A stretch of 19,270 nucleotides of DNA from Candidatus Iainarchaeum sp. (GCA_030649735.1 JAUSFL010000022.1:1-19270); one strand, 5' to 3'. Numbered from the stretch's first letter, positions 4,270 to 19,270 are shown. The notes: a model not told the origin generated them from the letters alone. Program-made: numbers and translations.

Positions 4270-4303
4270 AAAATTACATTAATAAAATTGGGTGGTGAAT
4301 TAT

Positions 4304-4945
4304 TTGAAAAGAAATATCATGGTATTATTGTTTTTTTTGCTTGCCGGCTTTTTCGCAAGCGCGCAAAGCCCTGCCGAAATTTCATTGGATTTGAAGGCAG
4401 ACACTTTTTACGCAGGCCCAGGGGACACTTTCCAGCTTGTTTTCACATTGAACAATCCAATGCCTGCAGGCGACAATACAATCGACAGGATGGACGTTCA
4501 CTTGCTTGGCTTGAAAACCGCTGGATTGCAGGTTGTCGGCTGGGAACAAAATGGCTGGCTGCATTCCTTTGACGCAAAATTCGAGGACGACCGTTTTTTC
4601 ATCACAAACGCCACAAGCCAGACTTTAACAATCACTTTGAAAGCAACCGCGCAAGTCAAGACATCATCAATCATTGGAAGCTATGCTTTCCAAAAGCTTT
4701 CAGGAACGCAATTCTTGAAGACTCCTTCAGAATTCAATGTCAAAGTGAATGCTGTTGCCGCAGGACAAGCGCAAGCGCCTTCAAAAACCCAGATTCCATT
4801 AAAAGAACAGGAGCAAAACAACATAATAATGATTGAAAGCATTGCAATTATTGCCTTGCTTGCAGTCGTGGCTTTCCTTGCATTCAAGAAGAACAGGACA
4901 AAGCAAGCCCAAGAAGCACAGCATTTTTCGCACAGAAAGAAGTGA
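4304..4945 (+). CDS. Single-pass membrane-anchored surface protein with one beta-sandwich (cohesin-like or Ig-like) domain
   Basis: GGTGGTGA SD at 4291-4298 favours a TTG start at 4304 (MKRNIMVLLFFLLAGFFASA, a signal peptide) over the GTG at 4292. The C-terminal TM helix IIMIESIAIIALLAVVAFLAF is followed by the basic tail KKNR. Confidence 0.8.
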   Translation: MKRNIMVLLFFLLAGFFASAQSPAEISLDLKADTFYAGPGDTFQLVFTLNNPMPAGDNTIDRMDVHLLGLKTAGLQVVGWEQNGWLHSFDAKFEDDRFFITNATSQTLTITLKATAQVKTSSIIGSYAFQKLSGTQFLKTPSEFNVKVNAVAAGQAQAPSKTQIPLKEQEQNNIIMIESIAIIALLAVVAFLAFKKNRTKQAQEAQHFSHRKK

Positions 4946-4946
4946 G

Positions 4947-4975
4947 TTTTCTCGCTTCTTTTTTTTCCTTTTTTT
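4947..4975 (+). terminator. Archaeal-type oligo(T) terminator
   Basis: Long pyrimidine/T tract (ttttctcgcttcttttttttccttttttt) immediately after the stop at 4945. Confidence 0.6.
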
Positions 4976-5004
4976 CCAAAATCTTTTGCCGCATGCAAGT
5001 TAGG

Positions 5005-5012
5005 TTTAAATA
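5005..5012 (+). promoter_or_regulatory. TATA box for the 1255-aa gene
   Basis: TTTAAATA begins 37 nt upstream of ATG 5042, in an intergenic region after a terminator. Confidence 0.55.
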
Positions 5013-5041
5013 TGCAAAACCGCTAGTATTAAGCGAAAAGC

Positions 5042-8000
5042 ATGCATTTCAGGACACTATTTTGGGCTTTTGCTTTAGCTTTGCTTTTGCAAAACGCGGT
5101 CGCGCTTTCTTCAAACATTGACATAAACATTGCCCAGACAGATTATTACATTAAAGACCCGCAAAACATCACGCTCAAGTTTGGCTTTTCAAACTTGCGC
5201 GATGACGATTTAATAATTGACAGAGTTGACTTTTACATTCTTGACTTGAAGTCAAACAATGTCGACTTTGTCGCTTTTTCTGGAAGCGACTGGCAGCACG
5301 AGTACTTGGCAAAGTTTGATGACGACCATTTTTGGATAACCAATGCTTCAGGCCAGACATTGAATGTTACAGTAAAGCCAAATTTCACGACCGAAGGCTC
5401 GTACGACCTTCAGGCATACTACCAGTTTTTTGACCAAACCGGAAGCATGGTTGGATTAGGAGACAACAGGCCAGTCAAGCCTTTAAATGATGTAGTAGAC
5501 CATGTTTTTGCCAGAATAATTGTTGACAAAACCCCGCCGCTTGTTTCATTCACTAAACAGCCGTCCTGGGTGGCCGCGGGCTTAAGCATTGAAGCAAGCG
5601 TTTCAGACGCAAACCCGCTAGTGTACGTCAGGCTGGCCTATAATTCGTCAAGCGGGCAAAAAACAATAAGCATGAAATACAATTCAAAGACAAAGCTGGG
5701 AATTGCAACAATCCCGCTGGCTGACATAAAAGAAGGAACTCTTGTCAATTACACTGTAACTGCCGGAGACCGCGCGGGAAATATCGGAACTGCCTCGGAG
5801 TCTTTCATGGCTTCAGACCTTCCGCAAATAAGCGGGCATCCAGACACTTTACTTCCCCAAGTTCCAATAACCTTGATTGCCAAAATCATTGACTCTTCAG
5901 GCGTGAATGACGCTTCAATAACATTCACTGTTGACGGAAAAAACGAGCAAACATTGCCAATGGCTAAAGGAAGCAGCAGTTCTTGGAGCGCTGTTTTAGG
6001 AAGCTTTCCAAAAGGCGCAAAAATAGACTATGCTATCACAGCGCATGACTCTTTTAGCAATGTTGGAAATTACGCCGGCACTTTTTCAATACTTGACGAA
6101 TACGCTGTAAAATTCAATGTAAAGGACGCTGTCCTGAAAACCCCTGTGAAAAACGTCAATCTCACTGTTTCCTCAAGGGTTGTTGACAATAACGGCGCAA
6201 ACTTCACGATTCCTGAAAAAACATTCGTTTTTGACGATTCAAAAACATTCACGCAGCTTGAAGGAAGCTATTACTTCATTTTTGACACGACTGAATACCC
6301 CCAGCACAGGTTTCTCTTTAACATTCAGTCAGACATGGAAAAAGACATTCTCTTGGGCGCTGGAGTGCAGTCAAGCATTAAAAGCGCAGACATAAAGCCA
6401 AAGATTGCGGACGACAATGAAAGCTTTTACCTTGAAATAAAGGCAGTGATTCAAGAAGCATATCCAGTGAAAACAATCAAGCTCATTTACAGCATCAACA
6501 CCGACTCTTTCAGCGAGTTTTTGGATCTTTCAAAAAACTCCAATGGAGAGTATGTCGGGACTTTAGGCCCTTTCACTGACCAAATAGTCCTTTATTCAAA
6601 AATTGAATTGGTTGACGCTTCAGAGCAGGCAATCATTTACGATTTGGGAATCAGGTGGTACAACCTGTTAAGCACTTTAAATGGCCTGAACATTGGGGTT
6701 GAACTTTGCGGCAATGGAAAAGACGACAACAACAACGGATTGATTGATGAAGGCTGCCCTTGCAAGGAAGCGGACACTCAAACATGCAGCAATAACAGGG
6801 GAGTCTGCAAGGTTGGAACGCAAAAATGCCTTAATGGCGCGTGGAATTCAGTTTGCGAGGGAGGAGTGACTCCAAGCGCTGAAATCTGCGGCAATTCATT
6901 GGATGATGACTGCGATGGCGCAGTTGACAATGGATGCTTCATTGACACTGACGGAGACGGATTGAGTGACGAGAGGGAAATAAAATTAAAAACAGACCCG
7001 CGCAATCCAGACACTGACGGAGACAATGTCTCTGACGGGCAGGAAGTGCTTTACGACAGCACAGACCCGCTAGACGCCAAAAGCAATTTGCTTTATACCG
7101 ACTTGCGCTCAAACATTAGCTTGGGAGAAACCCAAGAAATAAAATTATTCCATCCAAAGCTTGGGCAAATAACCGCGATTGAAGCCTTAATTATATCGCC
7201 TTCAGGAAAGGAAGACGCGTATTCTCCAGACGCGGAAGGAACAGTAAGCTTTAAGCCCACGGAAGCGGGAACTTACTCTGCAAAAATCGCGAAGAAAAAC
7301 TTTGAAGTAGTGAAAAGCTTTGCTGTAAGCTCGGGATTGTTTTCAATATTCAACAGCGCGGGAGTCTCAAATTCAGTAAGCTATGTTTTTGGAGAGTCTG
7401 CAGCGAAAGCGCCATTGGACATTATTCTGGTCATAATACTTTGCATTCTGGTTGGCTTTGTCGCAAATTCCCAGTATAATTCAGTAATGCGCCCTAAAAG
7501 AATTCTTTCTTCAAGCCAGGAAAGAAAAGAATTAATTAAGAGAACAGCGCTAGTAATTTTCAGCGCCGCATTGCCGCTCATTGCATTCAGGATTTTTGGA
7601 ATTCTTGGGGCATTGGTCATTGCAGTCCTTGCAGTCATTGCTTATTTCTTTTCGGGCTTTGCGGCAGCGAAATTTTCTGGAAAAAAGGCAATCAGGGTGG
7701 AAAGCGAAGAATCTGAAGGCGAAAAAAAGTCGTTAGGAAAGCTTGCGGCAGGCTTTAAGGGCTTGTTCGTGTCTGAAAAAAAGCAGGCTGAAATAAAGCA
7801 AACCAAAGAATGGAAAAAGCTGGAATGGACTTTGGACAACCGGCAGCAAAAAGCCGAAGGCCAAACTGAAGACAAGCAAGGCAAGCCGCTGGATTCAGGA
7901 AATTACGCGCAGTCAAAAACCCAGGAAAAAGGAATTGAATACATCACTCCAGAAACAGCCTCAAAGTTTGATGAAGCGTTTTCTGAAAAAGAACAGGCAG

Positions 8001-8809
8001 TGGACACTTCAAAATACGCCGACTCTTCAACTGCAGGCAGCACAAAGTCAATTGAAGTCTGGAAGCGCTTTGAGCCAGTCGAGTTTGAAGAACGCATGAC
8101 TGAAATAGGCAAGGAAGTGGAAAAAAGCCTTGAGAAAAAGCTTTTGGAAGTCGGCGAGGAAATCGAGGGAAGGGTTGGAAAGAAGCTTGCCGAAGTCGAG
8201 GAAGAAGTCGACAAGAGAGTCTCAAGAAGGCTCATGGAAACAGAGGAAACAATAGAGCGCAGAATGTCAAGAAAGCTTTCTGAAGTCGAGGATGACGTTG
8301 ACAGGAAATTAAAAAGAAGAATGGACGACCTTGAAGACGAGATTGGAAGGGAAGTCGAAAAGAAAATTTCCAAGGCAAGCTCTAAAACCAAGCAAAAAAC
8401 ATTGCAAGTGAAAAAAATCAAAAGGCAGGCATTGCTTAGAAAGATTGCGGAAGAAGAGTTGAAAAAAACCGAAGTGTTGAAAGCAAAGCTTGCCGCAGCA
8501 CAGCTGCAGCAGGCCCGGGCCCAAGTTCAAGAAAAGCCGGCCGCAGTCCCAACGCCAGTAATAAAAGAAAAACCAGCAAAAATTGAGGAAACTGGCTTTG
8601 TCCTCAAGGAAACAAAACAGCCAACAGCGCTCGCGCTTGTTTCAAAAACCGAAGAATTGCAGGTTGTCTCAAAAAACAGCGAGCAAAAAATGCAAGACCT
8701 GACAAAACAGCTTGCAATGCTTAACGAAAGCTTCTCCAAAGGCCTTGTAAAGAATGAAGAATTCCAAGCACGGGCCAAAAAGCTTCGTGAAGAGCTCCAA
8801 AAAATTTGA
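5042..8809 (+). CDS. Large multi-domain membrane protein. It has a signal peptide, an N-terminal domain paralogous to the upstream gene, several Ig-like domains, MopE-related Cys/Asp motifs, bacterial TSP3-type Ca-binding repeats, about 3 TM helices, a cytoplasmic 15-residue-repeat coiled coil and a SHOCT-like C-terminus.
   Basis: Motifs ELCGNGKDDNNNGLIDEGC, EICGNSLDDDCDGAVDNGC and DTDGDGLSDERE...DPRNPDTDGDNVSDGQEV at 6701-7076. Hydrophobic segments at about 7420-7670. C-terminus LAMLNESFSKGLVKNEEFQARAKKL. Confidence 0.85.
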   Translation: MHFRTLFWAFALALLLQNAVALSSNIDINIAQTDYYIKDPQNITLKFGFSNLRDDDLIIDRVDFYILDLKSNNVDFVAFSGSDWQHEYLAKFDDDHFWITNASGQTLNVTVKPNFTTEGSYDLQAYYQFFDQTGSMVGLGDNRPVKPLNDVVDHVFARIIVDKTPPLVSFTKQPSWVAAGLSIEASVSDANPLVYVRLAYNSSSGQKTISMKYNSKTKLGIATIPLADIKEGTLVNYTVTAGDRAGNIGTASESFMASDLPQISGHPDTLLPQVPITLIAKIIDSSGVNDASITFTVDGKNEQTLPMAKGSSSSWSAVLGSFPKGAKIDYAITAHDSFSNVGNYAGTFSILDEYAVKFNVKDAVLKTPVKNVNLTVSSRVVDNNGANFTIPEKTFVFDDSKTFTQLEGSYYFIFDTTEYPQHRFLFNIQSDMEKDILLGAGVQSSIKSADIKPKIADDNESFYLEIKAVIQEAYPVKTIKLIYSINTDSFSEFLDLSKNSNGEYVGTLGPFTDQIVLYSKIELVDASEQAIIYDLGIRWYNLLSTLNGLNIGVELCGNGKDDNNNGLIDEGCPCKEADTQTCSNNRGVCKVGTQKCLNGAWNSVCEGGVTPSAEICGNSLDDDCDGAVDNGCFIDTDGDGLSDEREIKLKTDPRNPDTDGDNVSDGQEVLYDSTDPLDAKSNLLYTDLRSNISLGETQEIKLFHPKLGQITAIEALIISPSGKEDAYSPDAEGTVSFKPTEAGTYSAKIAKKNFEVVKSFAVSSGLFSIFNSAGVSNSVSYVFGESAAKAPLDIILVIILCILVGFVANSQYNSVMRPKRILSSSQERKELIKRTALVIFSAALPLIAFRIFGILGALVIAVLAVIAYFFSGFAAAKFSGKKAIRVESEESEGEKKSLGKLAAGFKGLFVSEKKQAEIKQTKEWKKLEWTLDNRQQKAEGQTEDKQGKPLDSGNYAQSKTQEKGIEYITPETASKFDEAFSEKEQAVDTSKYADSSTAGSTKSIEVWKRFEPVEFEERMTEIGKEVEKSLEKKLLEVGEEIEGRVGKKLAEVEEEVDKRVSRRLMETEETIERRMSRKLSEVEDDVDRKLKRRMDDLEDEIGREVEKKISKASSKTKQKTLQVKKIKRQALLRKIAEEELKKTEVLKAKLAAAQLQQARAQVQEKPAAVPTPVIKEKPAKIEETGFVLKETKQPTALALVSKTEELQVVSKNSEQKMQDLTKQLAMLNESFSKGLVKNEEFQARAKKLREELQKI
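8087..8356 (+). repeat. Six tandem 15-residue (45-nt) charged helical repeats
   Basis: EERMTEIGKEVEKSL / EKKLLEVGEEIEGRV / GKKLAEVEEEVDKRV / SRRLMETEETIERRM / SRKLSEVEDDVDRKL / KRRMDDLEDEIGREV, with hydrophobic residues at positions 4, 7, 11 and 15. Confidence 0.85.
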
Positions 8810-8885
8810 CTCTTTTTCTTAATTTTCAATTATATACCACAAGTTGAATATAAAGGCCTGCAAAGAATGTGTTTGTGGAACATTA

Positions 8886-10706: not shown

Positions 10707-10756
10707 AAGAATTCCTTCTTTCCAAATTTGCTAGAGTTGCTAATTATCCCTTTGTT

Positions 10757-10778
10757 TTTTAAATGTGTGTTAGCACAT
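10757..10778 (+). promoter_or_regulatory. TA operon promoter: TATA box with an adjacent palindromic operator
   Basis: TTTTAAA at 10757-10763 runs directly into ATGTG-N6-CACAT (10763-10778). SD GGTGGT at 10791-10796. Confidence 0.55.
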
Positions 10779-10799
10779 ATTACAAATAGTGGTGGTTTA

Positions 10800-11018
10800 A
10801 TGGCTAATATGACTTTGAGCATTCCTGAAGAATTGCATAAGAAAATGCGGAGGCATTCTGAATTCAAGTGGAGCGAGGTTGCGAGGAAGGCGTTTGAGGA
10901 AAAAGTAAATGATGCTATTTTGATTGAAGATCTTAAATCAATTTCACGGGCTGAGAAAGAGCACAGTGCGGGGAAGACAATTTCACATTCTGCTTTGTTG
11001 AAAGAATTAGGCCTTTGA
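10800..11018 (+). CDS. Ribbon-helix-helix antitoxin (type II TA)
   Basis: The start at ATG 10800 follows a GGTGGT SD. MANMTLSIPEELHKKMRRHSEFKWSEVARKAFEEKV is an RHH pattern. The C-terminal GKTISHSALLKELGL is typical of RelB-like antitoxins. It lies 3 nt upstream of the toxin gene. Confidence 0.85.
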   Translation: MANMTLSIPEELHKKMRRHSEFKWSEVARKAFEEKVNDAILIEDLKSISRAEKEHSAGKTISHSALLKELGL

Positions 11019-11021
11019 AAC

Positions 11022-11270
11022 ATGGCTCAGAATATTTTTTATTCTACTTGTGCGGTTAGGCAAATAAAGAAATTGGATAATTCTTTGAAAATCCAACTTT
11101 CGAAAAAGATTTCCGAATTGCGGGAAAACCCAGAGCTTGGAAAGCCTTTGGGCAATATTTTGAAGAATAAGCGAAGCCTGCATATTGGAAAATTCCGCGT
11201 GCTTTATTCAATCAAGGAAAAAGACATAATAATTGCTGAAGTGGGGCACAGAAAAAACATTTGTGAATGA
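11022..11270 (+). CDS. RelE/ParE-family toxin (type II TA)
   Basis: 82 aa and basic. Motifs A.RQIKKLD, L.ENP..GKPL.G.L, IGKFRVLY and VGHRKNI. Confidence 0.88.
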   Translation: MAQNIFYSTCAVRQIKKLDNSLKIQLSKKISELRENPELGKPLGNILKNKRSLHIGKFRVLYSIKEKDIIIAEVGHRKNICE

Positions 11271-11299
11271 GCGGGCAGACTTGCTGAATTAGGGAATAA

Positions 11300-11333
11300 A
11301 AATTAGAAAAAAAGCAAAAGCGCCTGGCGCTTT
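11300..11333 (-). terminator. Hairpin plus U-tract terminator for the minus-strand histone gene
   Basis: Perfect palindrome AAAGCGCC-T-GGCGCTTT (11317-11333) starts at the stop codon. On the minus strand it is followed by a T-rich tract (gctttttttctaattttt). Confidence 0.65.
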
Positions 11334-11737
11334 CACTTTACGAATTTTCTGTCAACTTCATTAATTAGAACATCGCATGCTGCCTTGATGCTTTCGAGCT
11401 GTTTGATGATTCTTTCTTTTTCTTTTTCAATGTCTTGGATGTTTTCGTAGGCTTCGACTGCTTCCCTAAACATTGAACCGTCAACATAACTGTATGGGTT
11501 TTGGTTCATTTTTGTGGCCACTCTTTCAATCATTTTTCCAAGCCAAAGGTTTAATTCGACTTTTACCTGGCCTTTGATTTGCTTTCCTTTGTCCAAGTGC
11601 TTTCTGAGCTTGTTTGTTATTGTGGCGCGAGGGAATGGAAGCTCTATTCCTGACTCTTCAGCCTCTAATTCTTCGACTGAAATTTCTTCTTCGCTCACCG
11701 TATTAGTACTGTTTTCTTCAATTTCTTCTTCAACCAT
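11333..11737 (-). CDS. Histone-fold protein with an acidic N-terminal tail and a C-terminal coiled-coil helix (coiled-coil histone-like)
   Basis: LPFPRATITNKLRKHL (alpha1), IKGQVKVELNLWLGKMIERVATKM (alpha2), YVDGSMFREAV (L2/alpha3), then the heptad helix IEKEKERIIKQLESIKAACDVLINEVDRKF. SD GGTGGGG lies on the minus strand at 11744-11750. Confidence 0.72.
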   Translation of the reverse strand: MVEEEIEENSTNTVSEEEISVEELEAEESGIELPFPRATITNKLRKHLDKGKQIKGQVKVELNLWLGKMIERVATKMNQNPYSYVDGSMFREAVEAYENIQDIEKEKERIIKQLESIKAACDVLINEVDRKFVK

Positions 11738-11755
11738 TCAAAACCCCACCTTAAA

Positions 11756-11772
11756 AATGCCGAATCGGCATT
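11756..11772. promoter_or_regulatory. Perfect 17-bp palindrome (operator or 5'-UTR hairpin) between the divergent histone genes
   Basis: AATGCCGA-A-TCGGCATT, 5 nt upstream of the SD of the minus-strand gene. Confidence 0.5.
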
Positions 11773-11978
11773 GTTTTTTGGTATGTTATTACTGCGGCGA
11801 TTAAAATAAAAAGCCAACCACCCCCAAAACCATTGTTCCTTTTTATTCTTTTCTGTGGCTTCAAAAAACGTAGTGCCTAACTCTTTTTTGTGCTTCCTGA
11901 ATGCAGAAAAAACCACTATTTTTAATTTCTTCTGCCTTTTTTGATTGCTATTCTTCACATTTTTTGGAGGTAATTAAA

Positions 11979-12155
11979 ATGGCAGAATTATTGGTTGTAA
12001 CAAGCAAAGTAAAAGAAGCGATTTCAAAGGCTGACATGAACTGTTCAAGCGACACTCCTGACGCCTTAAGCGCTCACGTTGACGCAGTCATTCAAAAGGC
12101 AGTCGCGCGCGCGAAAGCAAACGGCAGAAAGACAGTAAGGCCAGAGGATTTCTAA
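11979..12155 (+). CDS. Short (58 aa) prokaryotic histone with a truncated alpha3 (face-to-face / Bd0055-like / DUF1931-like type)
   Basis: Strong SD GGAGGT at 11966-11971 precedes ATG 11979. The protein is MAELLVVTSKVKEAISKADMNCSSDTPDALSAHVDAVIQKAVARAKANGRKTVRPEDF, with the LVVxSKVK N-terminus and the RAxxNGRKTVxxxD histone L2 motif. Confidence 0.9.
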   Translation: MAELLVVTSKVKEAISKADMNCSSDTPDALSAHVDAVIQKAVARAKANGRKTVRPEDF

Positions 12156-12161
12156 AATCCT
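12145..12161 (+). terminator. Hairpin overlapping the histone stop codon (possible 3'-end structure)
   Basis: AGGATTT-CTA-AAATCCT, imperfectly extendable to about 12137-12168. Confidence 0.45.
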
Positions 12162-12175
12162 TGCCCTTATTGTCT

Positions 12176-12210
12176 AAAAAATTAAATACTAAAGCTTCTT
12201 CTTTTCTAAT
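12176..12210 (+). promoter_or_regulatory. Conserved promoter cassette copy 1 (A-rich BRE-like element, TATA, pyrimidine spacer)
   Basis: aaaaaaTTAAATActaaagcttcttcttttctaatGTG. The TATA at 12182 is 29 nt before the start codon, and there is no SD. Confidence 0.7.
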
Positions 12211-14100
12211 GTGGGATTAAAACTATTGGTTGTTTGCTTTGCATTACTGCTTTTTTCAAGCACTGCTTTTGCAGCAGAATGGTATGTCAGGCCTCCAATT
12301 GATACTTACGGCTTGAATAATGGCTCTTCTTTTGAAAATGCGTGGAGCGGGCTTGAAAATGTTGTTTGGGGCAATTCAGGCATCAATGCCGGCGACACTT
12401 TATTTATTTGCGGAGTCCAAATCAGGACAGTTTCTCAAGTAAGATATGAAGAAGGAATAATCAAAATTCCTTTTTCTGGAACTTCAGAATCAAGCCCAAT
12501 TACAATCAGGATGGACTGCCCTAATGGGGAAACAGGGTTCTTGTGGGGCATTTATGACGACCGCGTAAAAAACTCCAATGGCCCGCAATGGCAAGGCCCA
12601 GACCCTAATGGAGTTTACTCAACTAAAGACTTTACAACTCTCGGAAAGGGCGAATACGTCGAATACAATGGAACAACCGCGGTAAAGTTCAAGAAAATGC
12701 CCGGCAAGACTTGGGTTGGAAACAATGCGGCTTCTTTTTTTGAATCTTCAACAGGCACTACTTTCGTGAAAACAATTAATGGTGGAAGTCCTTCAGGAAA
12801 AATTTTTGCGCAGCATTGGGCCTTGGGCTATGGAATCAATTTTGCGGGAAAGAATTACATAAAGTTTTACAAATGCAATTTTTTGGGGGCTGCAATCCAA
12901 AAATACAAGCCAGATGATGATGAATATCTTGGGCCTTCAACGCACATTGTGTTTGACAATTGCGTGATAAAATACTATAATGAGGCCTTGAACCTTTATG
13001 CCGGCGACAATTACTGGACAATCAAGAATTCAGAAATCAGCAATTTTGGAGAAACGCACGGCGCAATTTACGCGCACACTCCAGGAATGGTTTACAACCT
13101 TACTGTGGAAAACAACAAAATCCACGACGTCTGCTATGATTGCGATGGCTCAATTTGCCCATCAAACACTTTTGACTGCCACGCGATTGGAATCCAGAAT
13201 GGCGAAAACCATTTAATTCAAGGCAATGAAATCTGGAACACTGGAGAGGCAATCAGCTTTTGGTCTGACACTTTCACAATGAAAAACATGACAGTGCGGA
13301 ACAATTTCATAAAAAATGCGAGAGTCTTTGGCGGAGAGAATGGAACTGGCGGCTCTGGAATAGTAATTTCCGGCGGCTCGAACGCGACTGCGGGCAAGAG
13401 AACTGGCTTTAAAATTTACAACAACATCATAATGAACACTGGACTAGGGTATGAATCAACTTGGACTGGAAGCGGAATAAGCAGCAACAATCCAGACTAC
13501 ACGGAAATTTACAATAATGTAATTTACAACCCGGGCGGGATTGGAATCAGGATAATTCCGGCCTTACCATTCAGCGGGAAAATCTATAACAACATCATAG
13601 TAAGCCCAAGGCTTAATTACTTGAAAATAATTGCCCAAGTAAACCCAAATCCTGGTTTGATTGTTTCCAACAATCTTTACTCTCCTGCAGTAGATTATTC
13701 CAATTTTGCTGTCTCTGAAGGAATCAATTTTACCGTAAATTCAATCTTTGCAAGCCCTAAATTCAATATTTCAAGCCCGCAAAACCCTGCCGATTTTGTA
13801 TTAGAGCAATCAAGTCCTGCAATTGACAAGGGCGTTAGCTTTTCAGGCGCTTTCGCGAACGATTTTTCCGGAACTTCAAGGCCTCAAGGAACTGCTTGGG
13901 ACATTGGCGCTTTTGAGTCTTCAAATGCTCCGGCATGCCTTGACTTGAAAAAGGACGGAAAAATTGACATTTTGGATTTAGTGTTTGTGATTTCCCGCTT
14001 TGGCAATCCAAGGGGCGATCTTGCAGATGTTGTTGGGAATAACGGCGTGGACATTAGTGATTTGCAGGAAGTTGCGGCTCATTTTGGCCAAACTTGCTGA
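12211..14100 (+). CDS. Secreted right-handed beta-helix (pectin-lyase-like) protein with a choice-of-anchor-Q-like segment and a C-terminal dockerin-like domain
   Basis: Signal peptide ending in AFA. WYVRP...GSSFENAW N-cap. Repeated I.NN.I.N beta-helix rungs. DFVLEQSSPAIDKG...DFSGTSRPQGTAWDIGAFE. Dockerin-like DLKKDGKIDILDL...DVVGNNGVDISDL at 13936-14100. Confidence 0.88.
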   Translation: MGLKLLVVCFALLLFSSTAFAAEWYVRPPIDTYGLNNGSSFENAWSGLENVVWGNSGINAGDTLFICGVQIRTVSQVRYEEGIIKIPFSGTSESSPITIRMDCPNGETGFLWGIYDDRVKNSNGPQWQGPDPNGVYSTKDFTTLGKGEYVEYNGTTAVKFKKMPGKTWVGNNAASFFESSTGTTFVKTINGGSPSGKIFAQHWALGYGINFAGKNYIKFYKCNFLGAAIQKYKPDDDEYLGPSTHIVFDNCVIKYYNEALNLYAGDNYWTIKNSEISNFGETHGAIYAHTPGMVYNLTVENNKIHDVCYDCDGSICPSNTFDCHAIGIQNGENHLIQGNEIWNTGEAISFWSDTFTMKNMTVRNNFIKNARVFGGENGTGGSGIVISGGSNATAGKRTGFKIYNNIIMNTGLGYESTWTGSGISSNNPDYTEIYNNVIYNPGGIGIRIIPALPFSGKIYNNIIVSPRLNYLKIIAQVNPNPGLIVSNNLYSPAVDYSNFAVSEGINFTVNSIFASPKFNISSPQNPADFVLEQSSPAIDKGVSFSGAFANDFSGTSRPQGTAWDIGAFESSNAPACLDLKKDGKIDILDLVFVISRFGNPRGDLADVVGNNGVDISDLQEVAAHFGQTC

Positions 14101-14107
14101 TCCTTCA

Positions 14108-14161
14108 AAAACCTGTTCTTTTTTGGCAATTAATAAATACTGAAACTTCTTTTTCTTTTGC
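14108..14161 (+). promoter_or_regulatory. Terminator/promoter cassette copy 2
   Basis: T-tract followed by ggcaattaATAAATActgaaacttctttttcttttgcGTG. The TATA at 14133 is 29 nt before GTG 14162. Confidence 0.7.
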
Positions 14162-16204
14162 GTGAGAGTTAAATTATTGCTTTTTTTATTTGCACTTCTG
14201 ATTTTTTCTAGCTTTGCTTTTGCGCAAGATTGGTTTGTGAGCCCGACTGCTCAAGGAACGCACAACGGCAGTTCTTATGCTAATGCTTGGGGTGGTTTTG
14301 ATCAATTAATTTGGGGCGAGGGCGGAGTAAGTGCTGGCGATACTCTTGTCGTTAGCGGAACTTTTATCTACCCCGATAATATGCTGAAAGGTTTGGTTAT
14401 TGGCGCTAATGGATCAGCGGGTAATTATATTACAATTAATGGCAATGATGGAATTCATCCGCAAGGCGTGATTATTGGAGCCCGCAAAATGGCCTCAGCC
14501 AATTTTTTGGACAATAATGATAACACTTTTTCCGCAAATATCTCCTTTAATGCTCCTTTGGCTTGGCAGGGCGATCCAACTGGAACTCCAAAGCTGTTGA
14601 AAATAGCCACATCGAAGGATGAATGTATTCAAATAGATGGCAGTTTTTACGTTGATACATTACCCACTCCAGATGTTTTATATGTCAATCCTTATGGGTT
14701 GAGCATTGAAGATATCTACTATAACTGGGCTGATAATATTGCAGGCAATGGGTATGATTACATTTATCTGAAAAACCTGAGATTATTCGGCGCTTCAAGC
14801 TCGCGTGGAATAATCCAGCTTTCCCGCGTTGGCGCTGCTGCAGGAAATGGCGCTCGGCACTGGATTATTGAAGACAGCGAGCTTGCCTTTGGCGGTAAAA
14901 CTGGAATTTATGCCCAAGCATATTCTACTGATGATATTCAAATTCTCGACAGCAATATTCATCGCGTGCCAACTGGGACTTACCCAACCGCAGAGCCGGG
15001 CATAGCGCACACTAATTGGGTTTTTGATGGAATTGAAATTTATTCTGGCGAGGACCTTGACAACATTTATGGTTGGACGCGCTCCGACAGGCATGCTTTG
15101 GGCGGGCAAGGCTTGGCTGGCGCGTTGTTTCAGAATAATTACATTCATGATTGGGCCGGGGATGGAATTCTCGTTGGCGGATCGCTTTCACCCATCACTA
15201 ATGTCACTGTCAGAAATAATCGCATTTTTAATTTAAATGATAATGACAGCGCAAATTATCATTGGGCAATCGCGCAGGCTTTGTCCAATGCAACTGATTA
15301 TAGTAAAAGATCTGCGGGCTGGAAAGTTTATAATAATCTTATTCAAAACTGCGGGCCTGGCGCGACTGGCTATGATGGCGTGGCTTTTTATCTCAAAGGT
15401 AAAAGCGATATACAAATTTACAATAATACTGTTCGTAACTGCCTGTTTGGGATTCATTGGCTGAATGTATCGCAAGAGATTGGCATGCAGTTCACCGCCA
15501 AAAATAACATTTTCGCTGATATGCCTGCGGCAAGTTATTACTTGTATGGCGGGGTCAGCACTGGCGATGTCAATATTGTGATGAATAATAACTTGTATTC
15601 AGCGGACACCAGCGGCACAGCCAATAAATGGATGCTTGACTATGTTGATTCGACTAATTTCCTAGATTGGAAGAGCGATTCGCTTCAGGATGCTAATAGT
15701 TTGCTTGGAAATCCTGGTTTTGTTAATGCTGCTGCGGGAAATTTCAGGTTGCTCTCTGGCTCTTCTGCAATTAATGCTGGCCAGAACTTGAGCGCTTACT
15801 TCAATGACGACTTTGACGGCAATCCTCGCCCGACGGCTGGCGTTTGGGCTATTGGCGCTTTTGAGTTTGCTGGAGAACTGCCGTCGTGCAATCTGCCGCA
15901 GATTCTTTGCGGGGGAATTTGCGTTACTCCAGTGTGCTCTAGTAGTGCAGAATGTGATGACCATAATCCTTCAACAATAGACTCTTGTAATAATTCAGGC
16001 ACTTGCACTGCCAGCTGCACGCACACTTCGGCAAGAACTTGTTTTGACCTTACAAGCGATGGAAAAATTGACTTGTTTGACTTGGTTTTTGTTGCCTTAA
16101 GGATTGGAAATGCTACTGGAGACCCTGCGGATGTTAAAGACAATGACGGAGTCAACATCAGCGACTTGCAGGCTGTTGCTGGACAGTTCGGGCAGACTTG
16201 TTGA
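14162..16204 (+). CDS. Secreted right-handed beta-helix protein with a choice-of-anchor-Q-like segment, an 8-Cys linker and a C-terminal dockerin-like domain
   Basis: Signal peptide ending in AFA. WFVSP...GSSYANAW. Beta-helix rungs. NFRLLSGSSAINAG...DFDGNPRP...IGAFE. Cys module at 15887-16018 and dockerin-like domain at 16040-16204. Confidence 0.88.
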   Translation: MRVKLLLFLFALLIFSSFAFAQDWFVSPTAQGTHNGSSYANAWGGFDQLIWGEGGVSAGDTLVVSGTFIYPDNMLKGLVIGANGSAGNYITINGNDGIHPQGVIIGARKMASANFLDNNDNTFSANISFNAPLAWQGDPTGTPKLLKIATSKDECIQIDGSFYVDTLPTPDVLYVNPYGLSIEDIYYNWADNIAGNGYDYIYLKNLRLFGASSSRGIIQLSRVGAAAGNGARHWIIEDSELAFGGKTGIYAQAYSTDDIQILDSNIHRVPTGTYPTAEPGIAHTNWVFDGIEIYSGEDLDNIYGWTRSDRHALGGQGLAGALFQNNYIHDWAGDGILVGGSLSPITNVTVRNNRIFNLNDNDSANYHWAIAQALSNATDYSKRSAGWKVYNNLIQNCGPGATGYDGVAFYLKGKSDIQIYNNTVRNCLFGIHWLNVSQEIGMQFTAKNNIFADMPAASYYLYGGVSTGDVNIVMNNNLYSADTSGTANKWMLDYVDSTNFLDWKSDSLQDANSLLGNPGFVNAAAGNFRLLSGSSAINAGQNLSAYFNDDFDGNPRPTAGVWAIGAFEFAGELPSCNLPQILCGGICVTPVCSSSAECDDHNPSTIDSCNNSGTCTASCTHTSARTCFDLTSDGKIDLFDLVFVALRIGNATGDPADVKDNDGVNISDLQAVAGQFGQTC

Positions 16205-16240
16205 AATGCTTAAATATTAGATTATTCTTTTTTATATCAA
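16205..16240 (+). promoter_or_regulatory. Diverged promoter cassette copy 3
   Basis: gcTTAAATAttagattattctttttatatcaaATG. The TATA at 16210 is 31 nt before ATG 16241, and there is no SD. Confidence 0.6.
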
Positions 16241-19063
16241 ATGAAACTTTGTTTTTTATTTTTTGTGGCCTTGCTTTTTGCAGGTTTTGCATTTTCTGCA
16301 ATTGCGCCAAGCAATTACTTGATTGAGCGGGTTAGCGGCGGCTCTTATCCGCCTGTAAGCCAGCACTTGATTTTTCCAGAGCCTTCAGGCATTTTGCCTG
16401 CAAAGGGAGTTTCTTGGATTCACGCGCAAACTGGCAATCGAACCGCAAGAGTCACTGACGCTTTTGCTGATGACAATGCATTAAACCCAAGCTATTACAA
16501 TCCAACATGGCCCGGAACTGGATTTTACAATGGATATTCAACTTACACTAATGTCAACATTACTGGCGAGTATGCTGTTGTTTTTGCAACAACTGCGTTG
16601 TCTAATTTGTACAGGCTTTCAGACAATGCTAGATTGAACAGGATTAAAACAAAGCAAGCCACTGCAGGAAACAACATTGGGGAAGTTCATGGAATTCGCT
16701 GGGACTTGACTGGAATTCCAGGAACCCAGACAATAATTTATTACAATATTGGCAGCAAGCTCTACCAGCAAGATGTTCTGTTAGGGTCTGCTTCAGAGCA
16801 AATTGTTTTCACTTTTCCAGGACAGCTTGGCGAAGACACTTACGGAGATTTTTCAACAGACGGAAAATACAGGGCTTTTGTAATGGCTGACAATAATGCT
16901 CCGTCAGGAATCAGCATTATAGTTTTTGACAAGCTTAACAAGCGAATTCTTCCAGGAAAAATAACAACGCATTTGGGAGTAACTAGCATGGTTAAAACAG
17001 GCGCTGATGTTTCGCCTGACGGAAAATGGCTTTATGTGACTGGAAGCGTTTACACTTATTACGACGGCACTCCCGGAAGCATTGGAGGCGCAAGATATTA
17101 CAGGATTAGCGATTTGGAAGCAGGAATGACAGAGCCCATACGCTGGCTCAATTACGTGGGAAGCCATTCAGGATGGAATTACGATTACAATGGAAAATTA
17201 GTTAAAATCGTAAGGGCTTCTACAGGCAATAGCGCAGACTGGTATTTTGCAGAATATCCTGAAACCGGGGAAAAAATGAAAATAATGCACATGACAGAAT
17301 TAGGCGGCTGGAATACAGACCAGCACATTGCAAGAATGTACAATCCAAGCATGAAAGGCTGGGCGTTATTTTCAACCTACAATTGCCTTACTGAGTACAA
17401 CACTTGGGGCAGCCAGCAATTGTTCATGGTTGAAATAAAGCCTGCTCAAATCAACGGCGTGAAAGTTCCAGCAGATCAAATGCCCAGAATTTGGCGGCTT
17501 GGCCAAACTTATGCCCAAACAAACGCTGACTCTGATGCAAGCTGCAATAAGCAATACTTTGCAGAAGCTTTTGCAAACTTGGATCCTTCAGGAACAAAAG
17601 TTTTTTGGGGCGGCAATTGGATGTTTTCGGGAAATCTGGAAATGTACGAGCTGGAGCTTCCTGAAAACTGGCATCAAAATCTTTCAGGAATCATTCCGCC
17701 GCCAGCCTGCACTTTACCCCAAATTTCGTGCAATGGCTCTTGCATTGCTCCAGTTTGCTCTTCCAATTCTCAATGCGATGACTCAAATTCTAGCACAACA
17801 GACTCTTGCAATAATGCGGGAACTTGCACTGCGTTTTGCTCTCGCATTCCTATCCCGCAACAGTCTGGCAAAGTTTACAATCTTTATGCAGGAACGCCTG
17901 ATGTCAGTTCTTACTCAATAGGGCCTGATGGCGTTTGCGTGCAAGGATTGTATTGGGGAAAAGACACATTATCAAATACAACTAGGGGAAATTACTTTGG
18001 CGCAGTATCAATAAGAAAAGGCACGTGGACTTATTTTAATGGCACAACAACAATTACGAGTTCTTTTGACTCTGTGTGGGCCAACAGTTACCATCATGGC
18101 TCAATTGTTTTCAGGTTCAATATTCCGGCAGAACTCACTGGCAAAAAAATCAAGAGCGCATATTTTGGATTTAACGCAAATAATCCTTCAGGCGCAAGCG
18201 ATGGAGGATCGATTCCCAAAGGCCGTGAAATGGTTCCCATAAAAACAATCCTAAACCCTCAAGGATACGCTGACCCGCCCACTTGCGCATACTTAAAAGA
18301 CATTAATGGGGGAACTGTAGAATCAAACTGGAATGGCGCATCATTTTTGAACCGTTATGAAGTTCCAAATGGCAGCGGGGGATATAATTCAACGCCTTGG
18401 AGCACTCTGCCAACAAAACTCATTGTTGACGGCAAAACGTACGGTAAAATAGGGGACATAACTAGTGTCGAAGGCCCAATTGCGGGGTGGATTTCATTTG
18501 TCTCAAACGCAATGAGCTACTCGACAGACGTTACGCCCGCAATCCAGGCCATTGTTGATGGAGCGCAAAACAACGGCTTTTTCATGGATGTTGATAATCT
18601 TTCTTCGCCTGACAATTTTGGGGATTACTCTAACACTCTCAACCCGAAATTCACTAGCCATGTGATATTTTATTCGTCATTTGCTGCCGACCCTGCCACA
18701 AGGCCGCGTTTAGTAATAACTTTGAATGAGAATCCTCAAGTAAATTGTACTTTGCCGCAAATTTCCTGCAGTGGGGTTTGCATCGTTCCTGTTTGCTCTG
18801 TTAATGCACATTGTGATGATTTGAATTCTTTGACTGTTGATATTTGCAACAATGTGGGAACTTGCAATGCAAACTGCACTCATGCCGTGATTGCGGCCTG
18901 TTTTGACCTTACCGGAGACAAGAAAGTAAATTTATTTGACCTTGTTTTTGTTGCATTGCGAATCGGCAATGGCACGGGAGATCCTGCCGATGTTTTGGGG
19001 AATAATGGAGTCAACATCAGCGACTTGCAGGCTGTCTCAATGAACTTTGGCCAAACTTGCTAA
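16241..19063 (+). CDS. Secreted modular protein: beta-propeller-like domain, 8-Cys linker, DNRLRE/disaggregatase-related-like beta-sandwich, second 8-Cys linker, and C-terminal dockerin-like domain
   Basis: Signal peptide. FSTDGKY, VSPDGKWL and LDPSGTKVFWGGNW are propeller-type motifs. FRFNIP...KIKSA...DVTPAIQAIVDGAQNNGF...FYSS...RPRLVIT matches the DNRLRE-type pattern. Cys modules at 17708-17839 and 18746-18877, dockerin-like domain at 18899-19063. Confidence 0.82.
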   Translation: MKLCFLFFVALLFAGFAFSAIAPSNYLIERVSGGSYPPVSQHLIFPEPSGILPAKGVSWIHAQTGNRTARVTDAFADDNALNPSYYNPTWPGTGFYNGYSTYTNVNITGEYAVVFATTALSNLYRLSDNARLNRIKTKQATAGNNIGEVHGIRWDLTGIPGTQTIIYYNIGSKLYQQDVLLGSASEQIVFTFPGQLGEDTYGDFSTDGKYRAFVMADNNAPSGISIIVFDKLNKRILPGKITTHLGVTSMVKTGADVSPDGKWLYVTGSVYTYYDGTPGSIGGARYYRISDLEAGMTEPIRWLNYVGSHSGWNYDYNGKLVKIVRASTGNSADWYFAEYPETGEKMKIMHMTELGGWNTDQHIARMYNPSMKGWALFSTYNCLTEYNTWGSQQLFMVEIKPAQINGVKVPADQMPRIWRLGQTYAQTNADSDASCNKQYFAEAFANLDPSGTKVFWGGNWMFSGNLEMYELELPENWHQNLSGIIPPPACTLPQISCNGSCIAPVCSSNSQCDDSNSSTTDSCNNAGTCTAFCSRIPIPQQSGKVYNLYAGTPDVSSYSIGPDGVCVQGLYWGKDTLSNTTRGNYFGAVSIRKGTWTYFNGTTTITSSFDSVWANSYHHGSIVFRFNIPAELTGKKIKSAYFGFNANNPSGASDGGSIPKGREMVPIKTILNPQGYADPPTCAYLKDINGGTVESNWNGASFLNRYEVPNGSGGYNSTPWSTLPTKLIVDGKTYGKIGDITSVEGPIAGWISFVSNAMSYSTDVTPAIQAIVDGAQNNGFFMDVDNLSSPDNFGDYSNTLNPKFTSHVIFYSSFAADPATRPRLVITLNENPQVNCTLPQISCSGVCIVPVCSVNAHCDDLNSLTVDICNNVGTCNANCTHAVIAACFDLTGDKKVNLFDLVFVALRIGNGTGDPADVLGNNGVNISDLQAVSMNFGQTC

Positions 19064-19070
19064 TTATTCG

Positions 19071-19124
19071 AAAACAAGCTTTTTTTTGGCAAAAATTAAA
19101 TACTGAAACTTCTTTTTCTCTAGC
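19071..19124 (+). promoter_or_regulatory. Terminator/promoter cassette copy 4
   Basis: T-tract followed by ggcaaaaaTTAAATActgaaacttctttttctctagcGTG. The TATA at 19096 is 29 nt before GTG 19125. Nearly identical to copy 2. Confidence 0.72.
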
Positions 19125-19270
19125 GTGAAAGCCAAATTATTGCTTGTTTTTTTTGCTTTCTTGTTTTTTGCCAGTTTTGCGTTTTCCACCAGCTGGTATG
19201 TTTCACCGACTGGAAACAACACTACTGGAAATTCTTGGGCTAATGCTTGGACAAGCCTTAATTTTACTGG
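19125..19270 (+). CDS. Fourth paralog of the secreted array, 3'-truncated by the window edge (absent from the ORF track)
   Basis: Translates to MKAKLLLVFFAFLFFASFAFSTSWYVSPTGNNTTGNSWANAWTSLNFT. It has the same signal peptide and W(Y/F)VxP...GxSxxNAW N-cap as genes 12211 and 14162. Confidence 0.85.
   Translation, partial: MKAKLLLVFFAFLFFASFAFSTSWYVSPTGNNTTGNSWANAWTSLNFT

Follow-up and report, generated by a model that had tools for sequence, protein, structure and literature searches.

Dockerin-like tails mark an array of secreted proteins as the probable cargo of a non-cellulosomal cohesin-dockerin display system in a small archaeon

Genes and features of the window

The stretch of DNA that was analysed (the window; 19,270 nt) is the entire contig C32 of the 1.28-Mb genome of Candidatus Iainarchaeum sp., a tiny groundwater archaeon. 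The archaeal source assumed in a preliminary description of this DNA is borne out by the small archaeal genome and by the nearest matches of GlmS, which include Woesearchaeota and Nanoarchaeia MAGs. The organism is probably a small-genome DPANN archaeon (kingdom Nanobdellati) of the Woesearchaeota/Nanoarchaeia kind. The following features were found:

1-3117, plus strand: cysteine-rich secreted protein of at least 1036 aa whose gene lacks its 5' end (BLASTP: giant protein of relative G047, E 3e-49; relative G030, E 3e-38)
3151-4269, plus strand: secreted protein of 372 aa with Ig and Cys-rich parts; its C-terminal domain is conserved and ends in MHY-x-RI-x-NL; belongs to one conserved block with both membrane proteins
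4292-4945, plus strand: small membrane-anchored protein, 217 aa, with signal peptide, shared domain (4364-4756), one TM segment and basic tail
5042-8809, plus strand: large membrane protein, 1255 aa, with shared domain (5105-5551), stalk of Ig-like and Cys-rich/TSP3 parts, TM segments and coiled coil
12211-14100, plus strand: secreted right-handed beta-helix protein, 629 aa, type A tail (Pfam Beta_helix, 39.6 bits)
13936-14097, plus strand: tail 1 (type A, dockerin-like), 54 aa with a Cys at either end and a duplicated Ca-loop/helix unit (25.8 bits against Dockerin_1 as an isolated tail)
14162-16204, plus strand: secreted protein, 680 aa, with Cys-rich linker and type A tail (choice_anch_Q, 36.6 bits)
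16040-16201, plus strand: type A tail of 14162-16204 (Dockerin_1 14.8 bits when cut out, under the cut-off)
16241-19063, plus strand: secreted protein of 940 aa; its N-terminal domain is propeller-like, and it also has a pair of Cys-rich linkers and a type A tail
18899-19060, plus strand: type A tail of 16241-19063 (Dockerin_1 16.2 bits when cut out, under the cut-off)
19125-19270, plus strand: start of a fourth paralog

Secreted proteins with a common dockerin-like tail

The three complete secreted ORFs (12211-14100, 14162-16204 and 16241-19063) each contain a single hydrophobic segment at the N-terminus and no further TM segment. As had been described, they share a 54-residue tail and have no anchor of their own. 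The ORF that begins at 19125 resembles them in its signal peptide and N-terminus and confirms the fourth paralog at the window edge. The protein bodies are diverse. Those of 12211-14100 and 14162-16204 are weakly related (26% identity), and the part common to 14162-16204 and 16241-19063 is the Cys-rich linker only. In 12211-14100, the NCBIfam domain choice_anch_Q (44.7 bits) stands immediately ahead of the tail. No Pfam family was found for 16241-19063; its nearest ESM Atlas clusters are PL22/PD40 beta-propellers (0.85-0.88), which is a lead only.

In the alignment, each window tail reads as a tandem pair of repeats, each about 22 residues long and made up of a Ca-binding loop and a helix. Tails 2 and 3 are 56% and 53% identical to tail 1 over 66 aligned columns, 12 upstream residues included. 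The proposal that these tails are dockerins was examined with Pfam PF00404 (Dockerin_1), for which the gathering score is 22.9 bits. The outcome was divided: tail 1 exceeded this score when cut out, whereas the other two stayed below it. In scans of the whole proteins Dockerin_1 was listed for 12211-14100 alone (16.0 bits), and all three proteins were below the cut-off. A six-frame search of the genome yielded 20 matches, seven of them over the cut-off.

A hidden Markov model built from the three window tails matched 24 ORFs of the genome, and the pattern is therefore not a product of chance. Thirteen of these ORFs, including those of the window, scored 82.8-135.1 bits and are designated type A; the remaining 11 or so constitute a second type, B. 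In all 13 type A tails the motifs D-L-T-x-D-x-K-[IV]-[DN]-x-x-D-L in repeat 1 and A-D-V-x-x-N-[ND]-G-V-[ND]-I-x-D-L in repeat 2 are kept, and the bracketing cysteines are invariant. The spacing of the second loop is one residue off what we take to be the dockerin consensus. When a profile of the 13 tails was compared with the PDB, seven of eight matches were dockerin-bearing chains, with 2jnk/2ozn as the best, but all were weak (E 0.004-0.73). Judged by sequence, the window tails are dockerin-like, as had been claimed. Genome-wide, the tailed proteins that were scanned carry beta-helix, LamG and Ig/cadherin domains and, in one case, GH39.

Cohesin anchors follow the dockerin arrays

The census of tails and cohesins that had been recommended was carried out across the genome. 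In addition to the tails, it uncovered four cohesins over the gathering score of Pfam PF00963 (24.1 bits), the very partner that was to be sought elsewhere in the genome. The six-frame scores were 34.9, 34.0, 31.6 and 24.6 bits; two of the cohesins lie on contig C13, one on C24 and one on C30. At the protein level, three scored 34.4, 28.0 and 31.3 bits, whereas the C30 cohesin, which had reached 24.6 bits in the six-frame search, scored 21.0 bits as a whole protein and thus fell under the cut-off. It is 62.5% identical to the C24 cohesin over 144 residues. The C24 cohesin alone as a query matched no PDB sequence. All four proteins comprise a signal peptide, one N-terminal cohesin and C-terminal TM segments.

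Contigs C32 and C24 share an exact end overlap of 108 nt that is unique in the genome. On C24 (reverse strand), the fourth paralog is completed to a beta-helix/fn3 protein of 1476 aa with a type A tail, and a cohesin membrane anchor is the next gene. The overlap of the two contigs therefore means that a four-gene type A array leads directly into a cohesin anchor. On C30, too, the gene immediately ahead of the cohesin anchor encodes a protein with a type A tail. Overlaps of 141 nt join C15 to C10/C19 and these to C13, and along this path type B genes are followed by two cohesin anchors, a conserved small-plus-large pair on C13. Since true cohesins are encoded in the genome and are mounted on membrane anchors, this archaeon probably displays proteins on its surface by means of a cohesin-dockerin system.

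The genome and 60 relatives (61 genomes) were searched for co-occurrence, as a census in relatives had been called for. Cohesins were found in six genomes and the tail profile in five, and all five tail-positive genomes were also cohesin-positive. The sixth, G015, contains cohesins, and the tail profile had no match in it. The 24 tailed ORFs of this genome compare with one to four matches in each of the four other tail-positive genomes. At five of 11 cohesin loci examined in relatives, a dockerin gene adjoins the locus; at the other six, no tail gene lay within the stretch covered.

Two membrane proteins share a rare domain of cohesin-like predicted fold

The preliminary description had paired the tails with a beta domain common to the membrane proteins 4292-4945 and 5042-8809, whose genes lie 3.4 kb upstream of the tailed array. 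The common N-terminal domain itself is real: the two copies are 33% identical over 107 residues (E 3e-16), and a TM scan placed C-terminal TM segments in both proteins. For the 217-aa ORF, the candidate starts are GTG 4292, 4304 (chosen in the preliminary description) and ATG 4319, at which a 208-aa database copy begins. Three database relatives of this protein were found, and no Pfam family matched it at E up to 10. The large protein contains TSP3_bac (36.4 bits) and TM segments at about residues 782-878; the part that follows, about 375 residues long, is a cytoplasmic coiled coil. Its residues 634-878 align with the stalk and TM segments of a true cohesin protein of G047 (27% identity, E 7.6e-22), and the shared domain occupies exactly the position that the cohesin has on this homologous protein. 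The domain is rare: its profile found 18 representatives among 1.84 billion proteins.

An AF2 model of 5105-5551 (pLDDT 89.1) predicts about 145 residues with ten strands. In a Foldseek comparison with the PDB, 26 of the 42 matches listed were cohesin chains and these were the top matches (TMq 0.37-0.63, best E 2.1e-5). Cohesin-dockerin complexes of clostridia and ruminococci matched best, and the Archaeoglobus fulgidus cohesin 2xdh was among the matches listed. The 16 others, with similar E-values, included YcnI, integrin, pilin and CLIPPER. At the sequence level no such likeness emerged: a Pfam search with the domain brought up no cohesin family at E up to 10, the profile of the domain matched PDB sequences at E 0.18-0.62 only, and hhalign gave probabilities of 0.65-3.1% against four or 15 archaeal cohesins, this genome's own included. 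The claimed resemblance to cohesins is suggested by the predicted fold and finds no match in the sequence. The domain models as cohesin-like rather than as the CARDB fold that had been named as the opposing outcome; it had no Pfam CARDB match at E up to 10, and no CARDB structure was among the Foldseek matches listed. The nearest ESM Atlas clusters were CARDB/DUF11, with scores of 0.78-0.82 that are below the tool's bar of 0.9. Like CARDB and DUF11 (PF07705, PF01345), the domain is all-beta and is carried by archaeal surface proteins; unlike them, it is without a Pfam match and is modelled with ten strands.

Giant cysteine-rich proteins accompany the shared domain

In relatives, the conserved neighbours of the shared domain are giant Cys-rich secreted proteins and not dockerin genes. 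The product of 1-3117 is collinear with the giant protein whose gene precedes that of the shared domain in relatives, and the gene order is the same in L106. The C-terminal end of 3151-4269 is also found on giant proteins of G047 and G028, where their genes stand immediately ahead of those for homologous membrane proteins. Altogether, Cys-rich proteins and a membrane protein with the shared domain are kept together in L106, G047, G030 and G028. A search with the C-terminal domain of 3151-4269 as the one query gave no match in either G030 or G047 at E up to 0.01, and structure prediction yielded no usable model of this domain (pLDDT about 27).

Interpretation and alternatives

Domains, architectures, gene order and co-occurrence were observed directly, and every binding step is inferred. 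We favor, with a probability of roughly 0.6, the explanation that the window encodes the cargo side of a cohesin-dockerin display system of the non-cellulosomal kind, and that the shared domain represents a new and rare family, predicted to fold much like cohesins, in a module separate from the true cohesins. The secreted cargo would carry glycan-binding or glycan-cleaving modules: a right-handed beta-helix and a PL22-like propeller in the window, and LamG, GH39 and Ig/cadherin domains on proteins encoded outside it. With Ca2+, the type A tail would plug into the one cohesin that a membrane-anchored protein presents at its tip. Gene adjacency suggests that the socket for the window array is encoded on C24 directly after the fourth paralog, with the C30 paralog as an additional candidate; the type B tails are likewise placed ahead of the cohesin pair on C13. 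In this way, the cell could hang interchangeable modules on its own surface. The proteins 4292-4945 and 5042-8809 would form the separate module, in which a cohesin-shaped domain sits on the stalk/TM scaffold of large cohesin anchors, and this domain may anchor the proteins 1-3117 and 3151-4269 via their conserved C-terminal domain.

Several other readings were weighed against this one. The tails might not dock at all but stabilise their proteins by binding Ca, or they might be C-terminal sorting signals for a processing enzyme. Two of the three window tails are under the Pfam cut-off, and in two window proteins choice-of-anchor Q stands directly ahead of the tail, where an anchoring or sorting domain usually follows. 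However, in six of the 24 tailed ORFs, e.g. the GH39 protein, the module is N-terminal, straight after the signal peptide, and a C-terminal sorting signal is therefore ill-fitting. As the tails also adjoin cohesin genes and, among the 61 genomes, occur only where cohesins do, we regard this reading as very improbable. Only slightly better placed is the original pairing, which takes the shared domain for a divergent cohesin that serves as receptor for the nearby type A tails. Its predicted fold is consistent with this, as are its short distance from the array, a stalk homologous to that of a relative's cohesin protein, and the same architecture of signal peptide, domain and TM segments as in the true anchors, which likewise come as a small and a large protein. 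Moreover, all three genomes that bear the domain also have cohesins and tails; two of the three belong to one genus. Against the pairing stand the missing sequence match and the Pfam-grade cohesins that directly follow both dockerin arrays and the C30 type A gene. In addition, G030 and G047 possess the domain, yet the one tail-profile match in each lies beside the true cohesin pair, and in L106 neither a dockerin nor a cohesin is encoded in the 6.8 kb downstream of the shared-domain pair. In relatives the domain travels with the giant Cys-rich proteins, and we consider the pairing unlikely.

A stronger competitor, still clearly less probable than the favored explanation, is that the domain is a generic Ig/CARDB-like beta-sandwich, a spacer or an adhesin for host surfaces, that has no docking partner in its own cell and resembles cohesins by convergence. 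The lack of a sequence-level link to cohesins, the CARDB/DUF11 clusters as nearest named neighbors and the non-cohesins at similar E-values argue for it. It fits less well with the majority of cohesins among the Foldseek matches listed, the lack of CARDB there and in Pfam, and the ESM scores under the tool's own bar. It would also leave the domain in the cohesin's exact place on a homologous scaffold, next to a secreted neighbor that is kept in four lineages. More speculative, and in our view doubtful, is an extension of the separate-module explanation: the shared domain could be a third class of cohesin-shaped receptor, beyond sequence recognition, that captures the MHY-x-RI-x-NL C-terminal domain of the giant Cys-rich proteins; that C-terminal domain would then be a new non-EF-hand counterpart of dockerin. 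If so, three orthogonal plug-and-socket systems would be built on a single stalk/TM scaffold family, and through the large protein the cell surface would be connected to the cytoplasmic coiled coil.

Comparison with known systems

The display system that we favor follows the same logic as the cellulosomes of clostridia and ruminococci, with anchorless dockerin proteins and cell-bound cohesins. Nevertheless, the label "cellulosome-like" of the preliminary description was too strong. Each anchor has one cohesin and no multi-cohesin scaffoldin was seen among the anchors, no cellulase was found among the cargo proteins scanned, and anchoring is by TM helices instead of SLH domains or sortase. Closer counterparts are the non-cellulosomal cohesin-dockerin pairs of archaea and bacteria (PF00963/PF00404), for which we refer to Peer et al.; examples are the A. 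fulgidus cohesin 2xdh and the GH84C dockerin 2jnk/2ozn of Clostridium perfringens. Common to both are the duplicated Ca-loop/helix tail on secreted multi-domain proteins and Pfam-grade cohesins in the same genome. The archaeon described here differs from them in that each tail is bracketed by invariant cysteines, two tail types each lie beside their own cohesin anchors, and every cohesin is single and N-terminal on a TM-anchored protein. With 24 tailed ORFs, the set is also large for a genome of 1.28 Mb.

Results

Gene content of the contig and its source organism

The G000 assembly (1,281,898 bases, 51 contigs, 92.7% complete) contains the window as its entire contig C32, and every large ORF of the window is carried on the plus strand:

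1-3117 (+), Cys-rich protein, 5' end cut
3151-4269 (+), secreted Ig plus Cys-rich protein of 372 aa
4292-4945 (+), membrane protein of 217 aa
5042-8809 (+), membrane protein of 1255 aa
8844-10706 (+), GlmS
10728-11018 and 11022-11270 (+), small ParE-type toxin-antitoxin pair
12211-14100, 14162-16204 and 16241-19063 (+), three secreted tailed proteins
19125 onward (+), start of a fourth paralog

The organism had been described as a probable DPANN archaeon. This is consistent with the full-length archaeal SSU rRNA of G000 (1373.8 bits), with the small assemblies of its relatives (0.5-1.5 Mb), with GlmS matches to Woesearchaeota and Nanoarchaeia, and with the NCBI taxonomy, which places Woesearchaeota within the kingdom Nanobdellati, a kingdom that we take to correspond to the DPANN archaea. 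One DNA run (X1), labelled as a groundwater metagenome, contained 0.99 of the sampled words of the stretch and may be the source of this DNA; no RNA runs containing it were listed in the sequencing-run search.

The secreted proteins carry dockerin-like tails

All three secreted proteins end in a 54-residue Cys-to-Cys module, and each has a single N-terminal hydrophobic segment and no further TM segment. The tails are conserved, the bodies much less so: the first two proteins are 26% identical, and the common part of the second and third is limited to a Cys-rich linker. The preliminary description of three anchorless secreted proteins with a common tail, followed by a fourth paralog at the window edge, was thus confirmed. 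The Dockerin_1 search that it had proposed gave a divided result, as one of the excised window tails scored above the Pfam cut-off of 22.9 bits (25.8 bits) and two scored below it (14.8 and 16.2 bits). When PDB sequences were searched with a profile built from the 13 closest tails (A6), 8 matches were obtained at E values up to 1, all of them weak, and 7 of these were dockerin-bearing chains (best 2jnk/2ozn, E 0.0043).

An HMM built from the three window tails was used to search 6399 crude ORFs of G000, and 24 tailed ORFs were found. Thirteen carry tails of the window's kind (type A, 82.8-135.1 bits), which are 56-91% identical to the first tail and without exception retain the duplicated Ca-loop/helix pattern and both bracketing cysteines. 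The second group of 11 ORFs (18.7-38.9 bits) comprises type B tails and two intermediates; two of its members, on contigs C10 and C19, are variants of one locus. Of the 24 modules, 18 are C-terminal and the other 6 lie at the N-terminus, directly behind the signal peptide; one of these 6 belongs to a GH39 protein. Because the module occurs at either end of the protein, a docking module fits better than a C-terminal sorting signal. We regard the dockerin observation as real.

Two further modules were noted. A third kind of dockerin-like C-terminal module is present in a 1343-aa Cys-rich protein on another contig (C47, 30663-34694, minus strand); it was missed by the tail HMM and scores 23.7 bits on Pfam Dockerin_1. 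Also, two of the tailed proteins share a recurrent Cys-rich module (about 45 residues, C-x-LPQ-[IL]-x-C-x-G-x-C-I-x-P-x-C ...), with copies at about 15880-16040, 17700-17850 and 18740-18900 of the window. As several copies of it were also recognized by eye in the cohesin anchor on contig C30 (L007), cargo and anchor seem to have a linker module in common.

Tail arrays lead into membrane-anchored cohesins

A six-frame search of G000 with the Pfam Cohesin model yielded four matches above the cut-off, two on contig C13 and one each on C24 and C30. The four proteins have the same order of a signal peptide, a cohesin, spacer domains and C-terminal TM segments. Positions 19163-19270 of the window are identical to 17986-18093 of C24 (reverse strand), and this exact overlap of 108 bases is unique in the genome. 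Therefore, the locus runs on into C24, and the fourth paralog is a 1476-aa beta-helix/fn3 protein with a type A tail. About 55 nt behind it, the next gene on C24 encodes a cohesin-fn3-LamG-TM protein. This C24 cohesin alone had zero matches among PDB sequences; it is 62.5% identical to the cohesin on C30, where a type A protein is encoded directly upstream of the anchor. For type B, assembly-graph overlaps of 141 nt lead from C15 (two type B genes) via C10 or C19 (one type B gene) to C13, with its two cohesin anchors of 193 and 1038 aa. Hence, arrays of both tail types lead into cohesin anchors. C10 and C19, of 1699 bases each, both encode a 519-aa protein with a type B tail, and as these alternative contigs occupy one position in the graph, strain heterogeneity is suggested at this locus.

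The relatives were included in the census. Among 61 genomes (G000 and 60 relatives), which are kin and in many cases incomplete, a Pfam cohesin was found in 6 and the tail profile in 5, and all 5 were also cohesin-positive. The tail profile had 25 matches in G000 versus 1-4 in the other positive genomes. In three relatives (G008, G030 and G047), a dockerin-tailed gene, a small cohesin anchor and a large cohesin anchor follow one another on one strand, and a tail gene adjoins the cohesin gene at 5 of the 11 cohesin loci examined in relatives. Of the 151 phylum members that were sampled (genome completeness 80% or better), 6 contained a cohesin.

Together, the four membrane-anchored cohesins and the arrays leading into them support the proposal that the tails belong to a cohesin-dockerin surface display system. 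We regard this system as genuine, with every binding step being inferred.

A domain of predicted cohesin-like shape in two membrane proteins

The preliminary description had sought the partners of the tails in the 217-aa and 1255-aa membrane proteins of the window. Both have C-terminal TM segments, and their N-terminal domains are 33% identical over 107 residues (E 3e-16). In a search of 1.84 billion proteins, a profile built from both copies of this shared domain retrieved 18 representatives. In 15 of these, the domain follows a signal peptide at the N-terminus; besides small (about 190-230 aa) and large forms (about 890-1230 aa), they include shorter proteins, which are probably partial.

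The claim that the domain is cohesin-like drew support from the predicted fold, but not from the sequence. No Pfam family was matched at E values up to 10, and the domain is not among the Pfam cohesins of the census. Comparison with 4 or 15 archaeal cohesins by hhalign gave probabilities of 0.65-3.1%, i.e. no sequence link, and the profile reached E values of only 0.18-0.62 against PDB sequences. In contrast, the confident AF2 model (ten strands, pLDDT 89.1, pTM 0.83) retrieved cohesin chains in 26 of the 42 Foldseek rows listed for the PDB (best E 2.1e-5, TMq up to 0.63); the other 16 listed rows were YcnI, integrin, pilin, CLIPPER and similar domains. A weak counter-signal came from the ESM Atlas features, which pointed toward CARDB/DUF11 clusters at 0.78-0.82, under the bar of the tool. 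Residues 634-878 of the 1255-aa protein (TSP3 repeats, an Ig-like domain and TM helices) align over 254 residues with the corresponding part of the true large cohesin anchor of G047 (27% identity, E 7.6e-22), and thus the shared domain occupies the place of the cohesin on a homologous scaffold. On the basis of the structural model, the shared domain would represent a new, cohesin-shaped family. If a ligand is found, this family would enlarge the known range of such sockets. Behind its TM helices, the 1255-aa protein has a long Glu/Lys-rich, coiled-coil-like cytoplasmic tail (residues about 880-1255, window about 7680-8806), which is also present in two database relatives (P0004 and P0011).

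A complex predicted from the shared domain (alignment A3), residues 11-66 of a type A tail (A6) and two Ca scored 0.00 in both runs, which speaks neither for nor against binding. A related metagenome contig (L106) contains the same block of four genes, namely homologues of 1-3117 and 3151-4269, the small form and the large form, and neither a dockerin nor a cohesin lies within 6.8 kb downstream of it. In G047 and G030, the gene just before the large form encodes a giant Cys-rich protein, collinear with the first two ORFs of the window, and in G028, a giant protein ending, like 3151-4269, in an MHY-x-RI-x-NL motif precedes a 902-aa large-form homologue with degenerate copies of the shared domain. 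G030 and G047 have one tail-profile match each, and it adjoins their true cohesin pair. A scan for related loci with a narrower alignment (A4) found two loci in metagenome_contigs and none in genome_contigs. The C-terminal domain of 3151-4269, used as a single query against the 60 relatives, matched G028, with G020 being borderline and G030 and G047 unmatched; a small-database BLAST gave a G047 match (E 2.4e-5). The AF2 model of this protein (alignment A5, 7 rows) had a mean pLDDT of 49.9, and of about 27 for the C-terminal residues 174-372.

Hence, the conserved neighbours of the shared domain are genes other than dockerin genes. For this reason, and because the sole tail-profile match of G030 and of G047 lies beside a true cohesin pair, the two membrane proteins are probably not the receptors of the window tails. 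We read them as a separate anchor-like module, which, judging from gene order, may hold the upstream Cys-rich proteins, with the C-terminal domain of 3151-4269 as the candidate ligand.

Cargo and comparison with known systems

Pfam domains on the tailed proteins were Beta_helix, Laminin_G_3, fn3, CHB_HEX_C_1, He_PIG/Big_9/cadherin-like and GH39; a disaggregatase repeat matched below the threshold. The N-terminal 460 residues of 16241-19063 show a likeness to PL22/PD40 propeller clusters, which we treat as a lead only. Pfam detected no cellulase on the tailed proteins scanned, and no scaffoldin with several cohesins was found in G000. Therefore, the system is non-cellulosomal, and the earlier label "cellulosome-like" was not borne out. 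We infer that the cargo binds or processes glycans at the cell surface.

The system is of the same kind as known cohesin-dockerin systems, but is distinguished by Cys-bracketed tails, two tail types, TM anchors with a single cohesin, and arrays that lead into their own anchors. In the parts of the literature covered, no description of a cohesin-dockerin system in DPANN archaea was found; related passages concerned Omnitrophota and a CPR bacterium. The attachment of DPANN archaea to their hosts, and their action on host surfaces, are little understood. Here, a 1.28-Mb genome devotes about two dozen genes to proteins that combine a dockerin tag with modules for glycan binding or cleavage, and encodes membrane anchors with the putatively matching socket beside the tail arrays. 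These parts of a proposed modular surface can be tested for the pairing of tails with cohesins and for the targets that the cargo may bind or cut.

Other genes of the window

In the toxin-antitoxin pair, ORF 11022-11270 matches Pfam ParE_toxin (45 bits), and ORF 10728-11018 weakly matches DUF6290 and RelB/VapB antitoxin models. An acidic 134-aa ORF (11333-11737, minus strand) had no family match; a similar ORF on L106 (7693-8148, minus strand) is likewise placed after the large membrane protein. A histone-fold identity for 11333-11737 (minus strand) and for 11901-12155 was dropped for want of Pfam support. The listed TTG start of GlmS adds 14 residues before Met-Cys, and as alignments with related proteins begin there (query residues 13-15 onward), translation probably starts near 8886. 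Among the best GlmS matches are Candidatus Woesearchaeota and Nanoarchaeia MAGs (62% and 59% identity) and bacterial MAGs (55-63%), and because archaeal and bacterial matches are mixed at similar identity, the gene may have been transferred.
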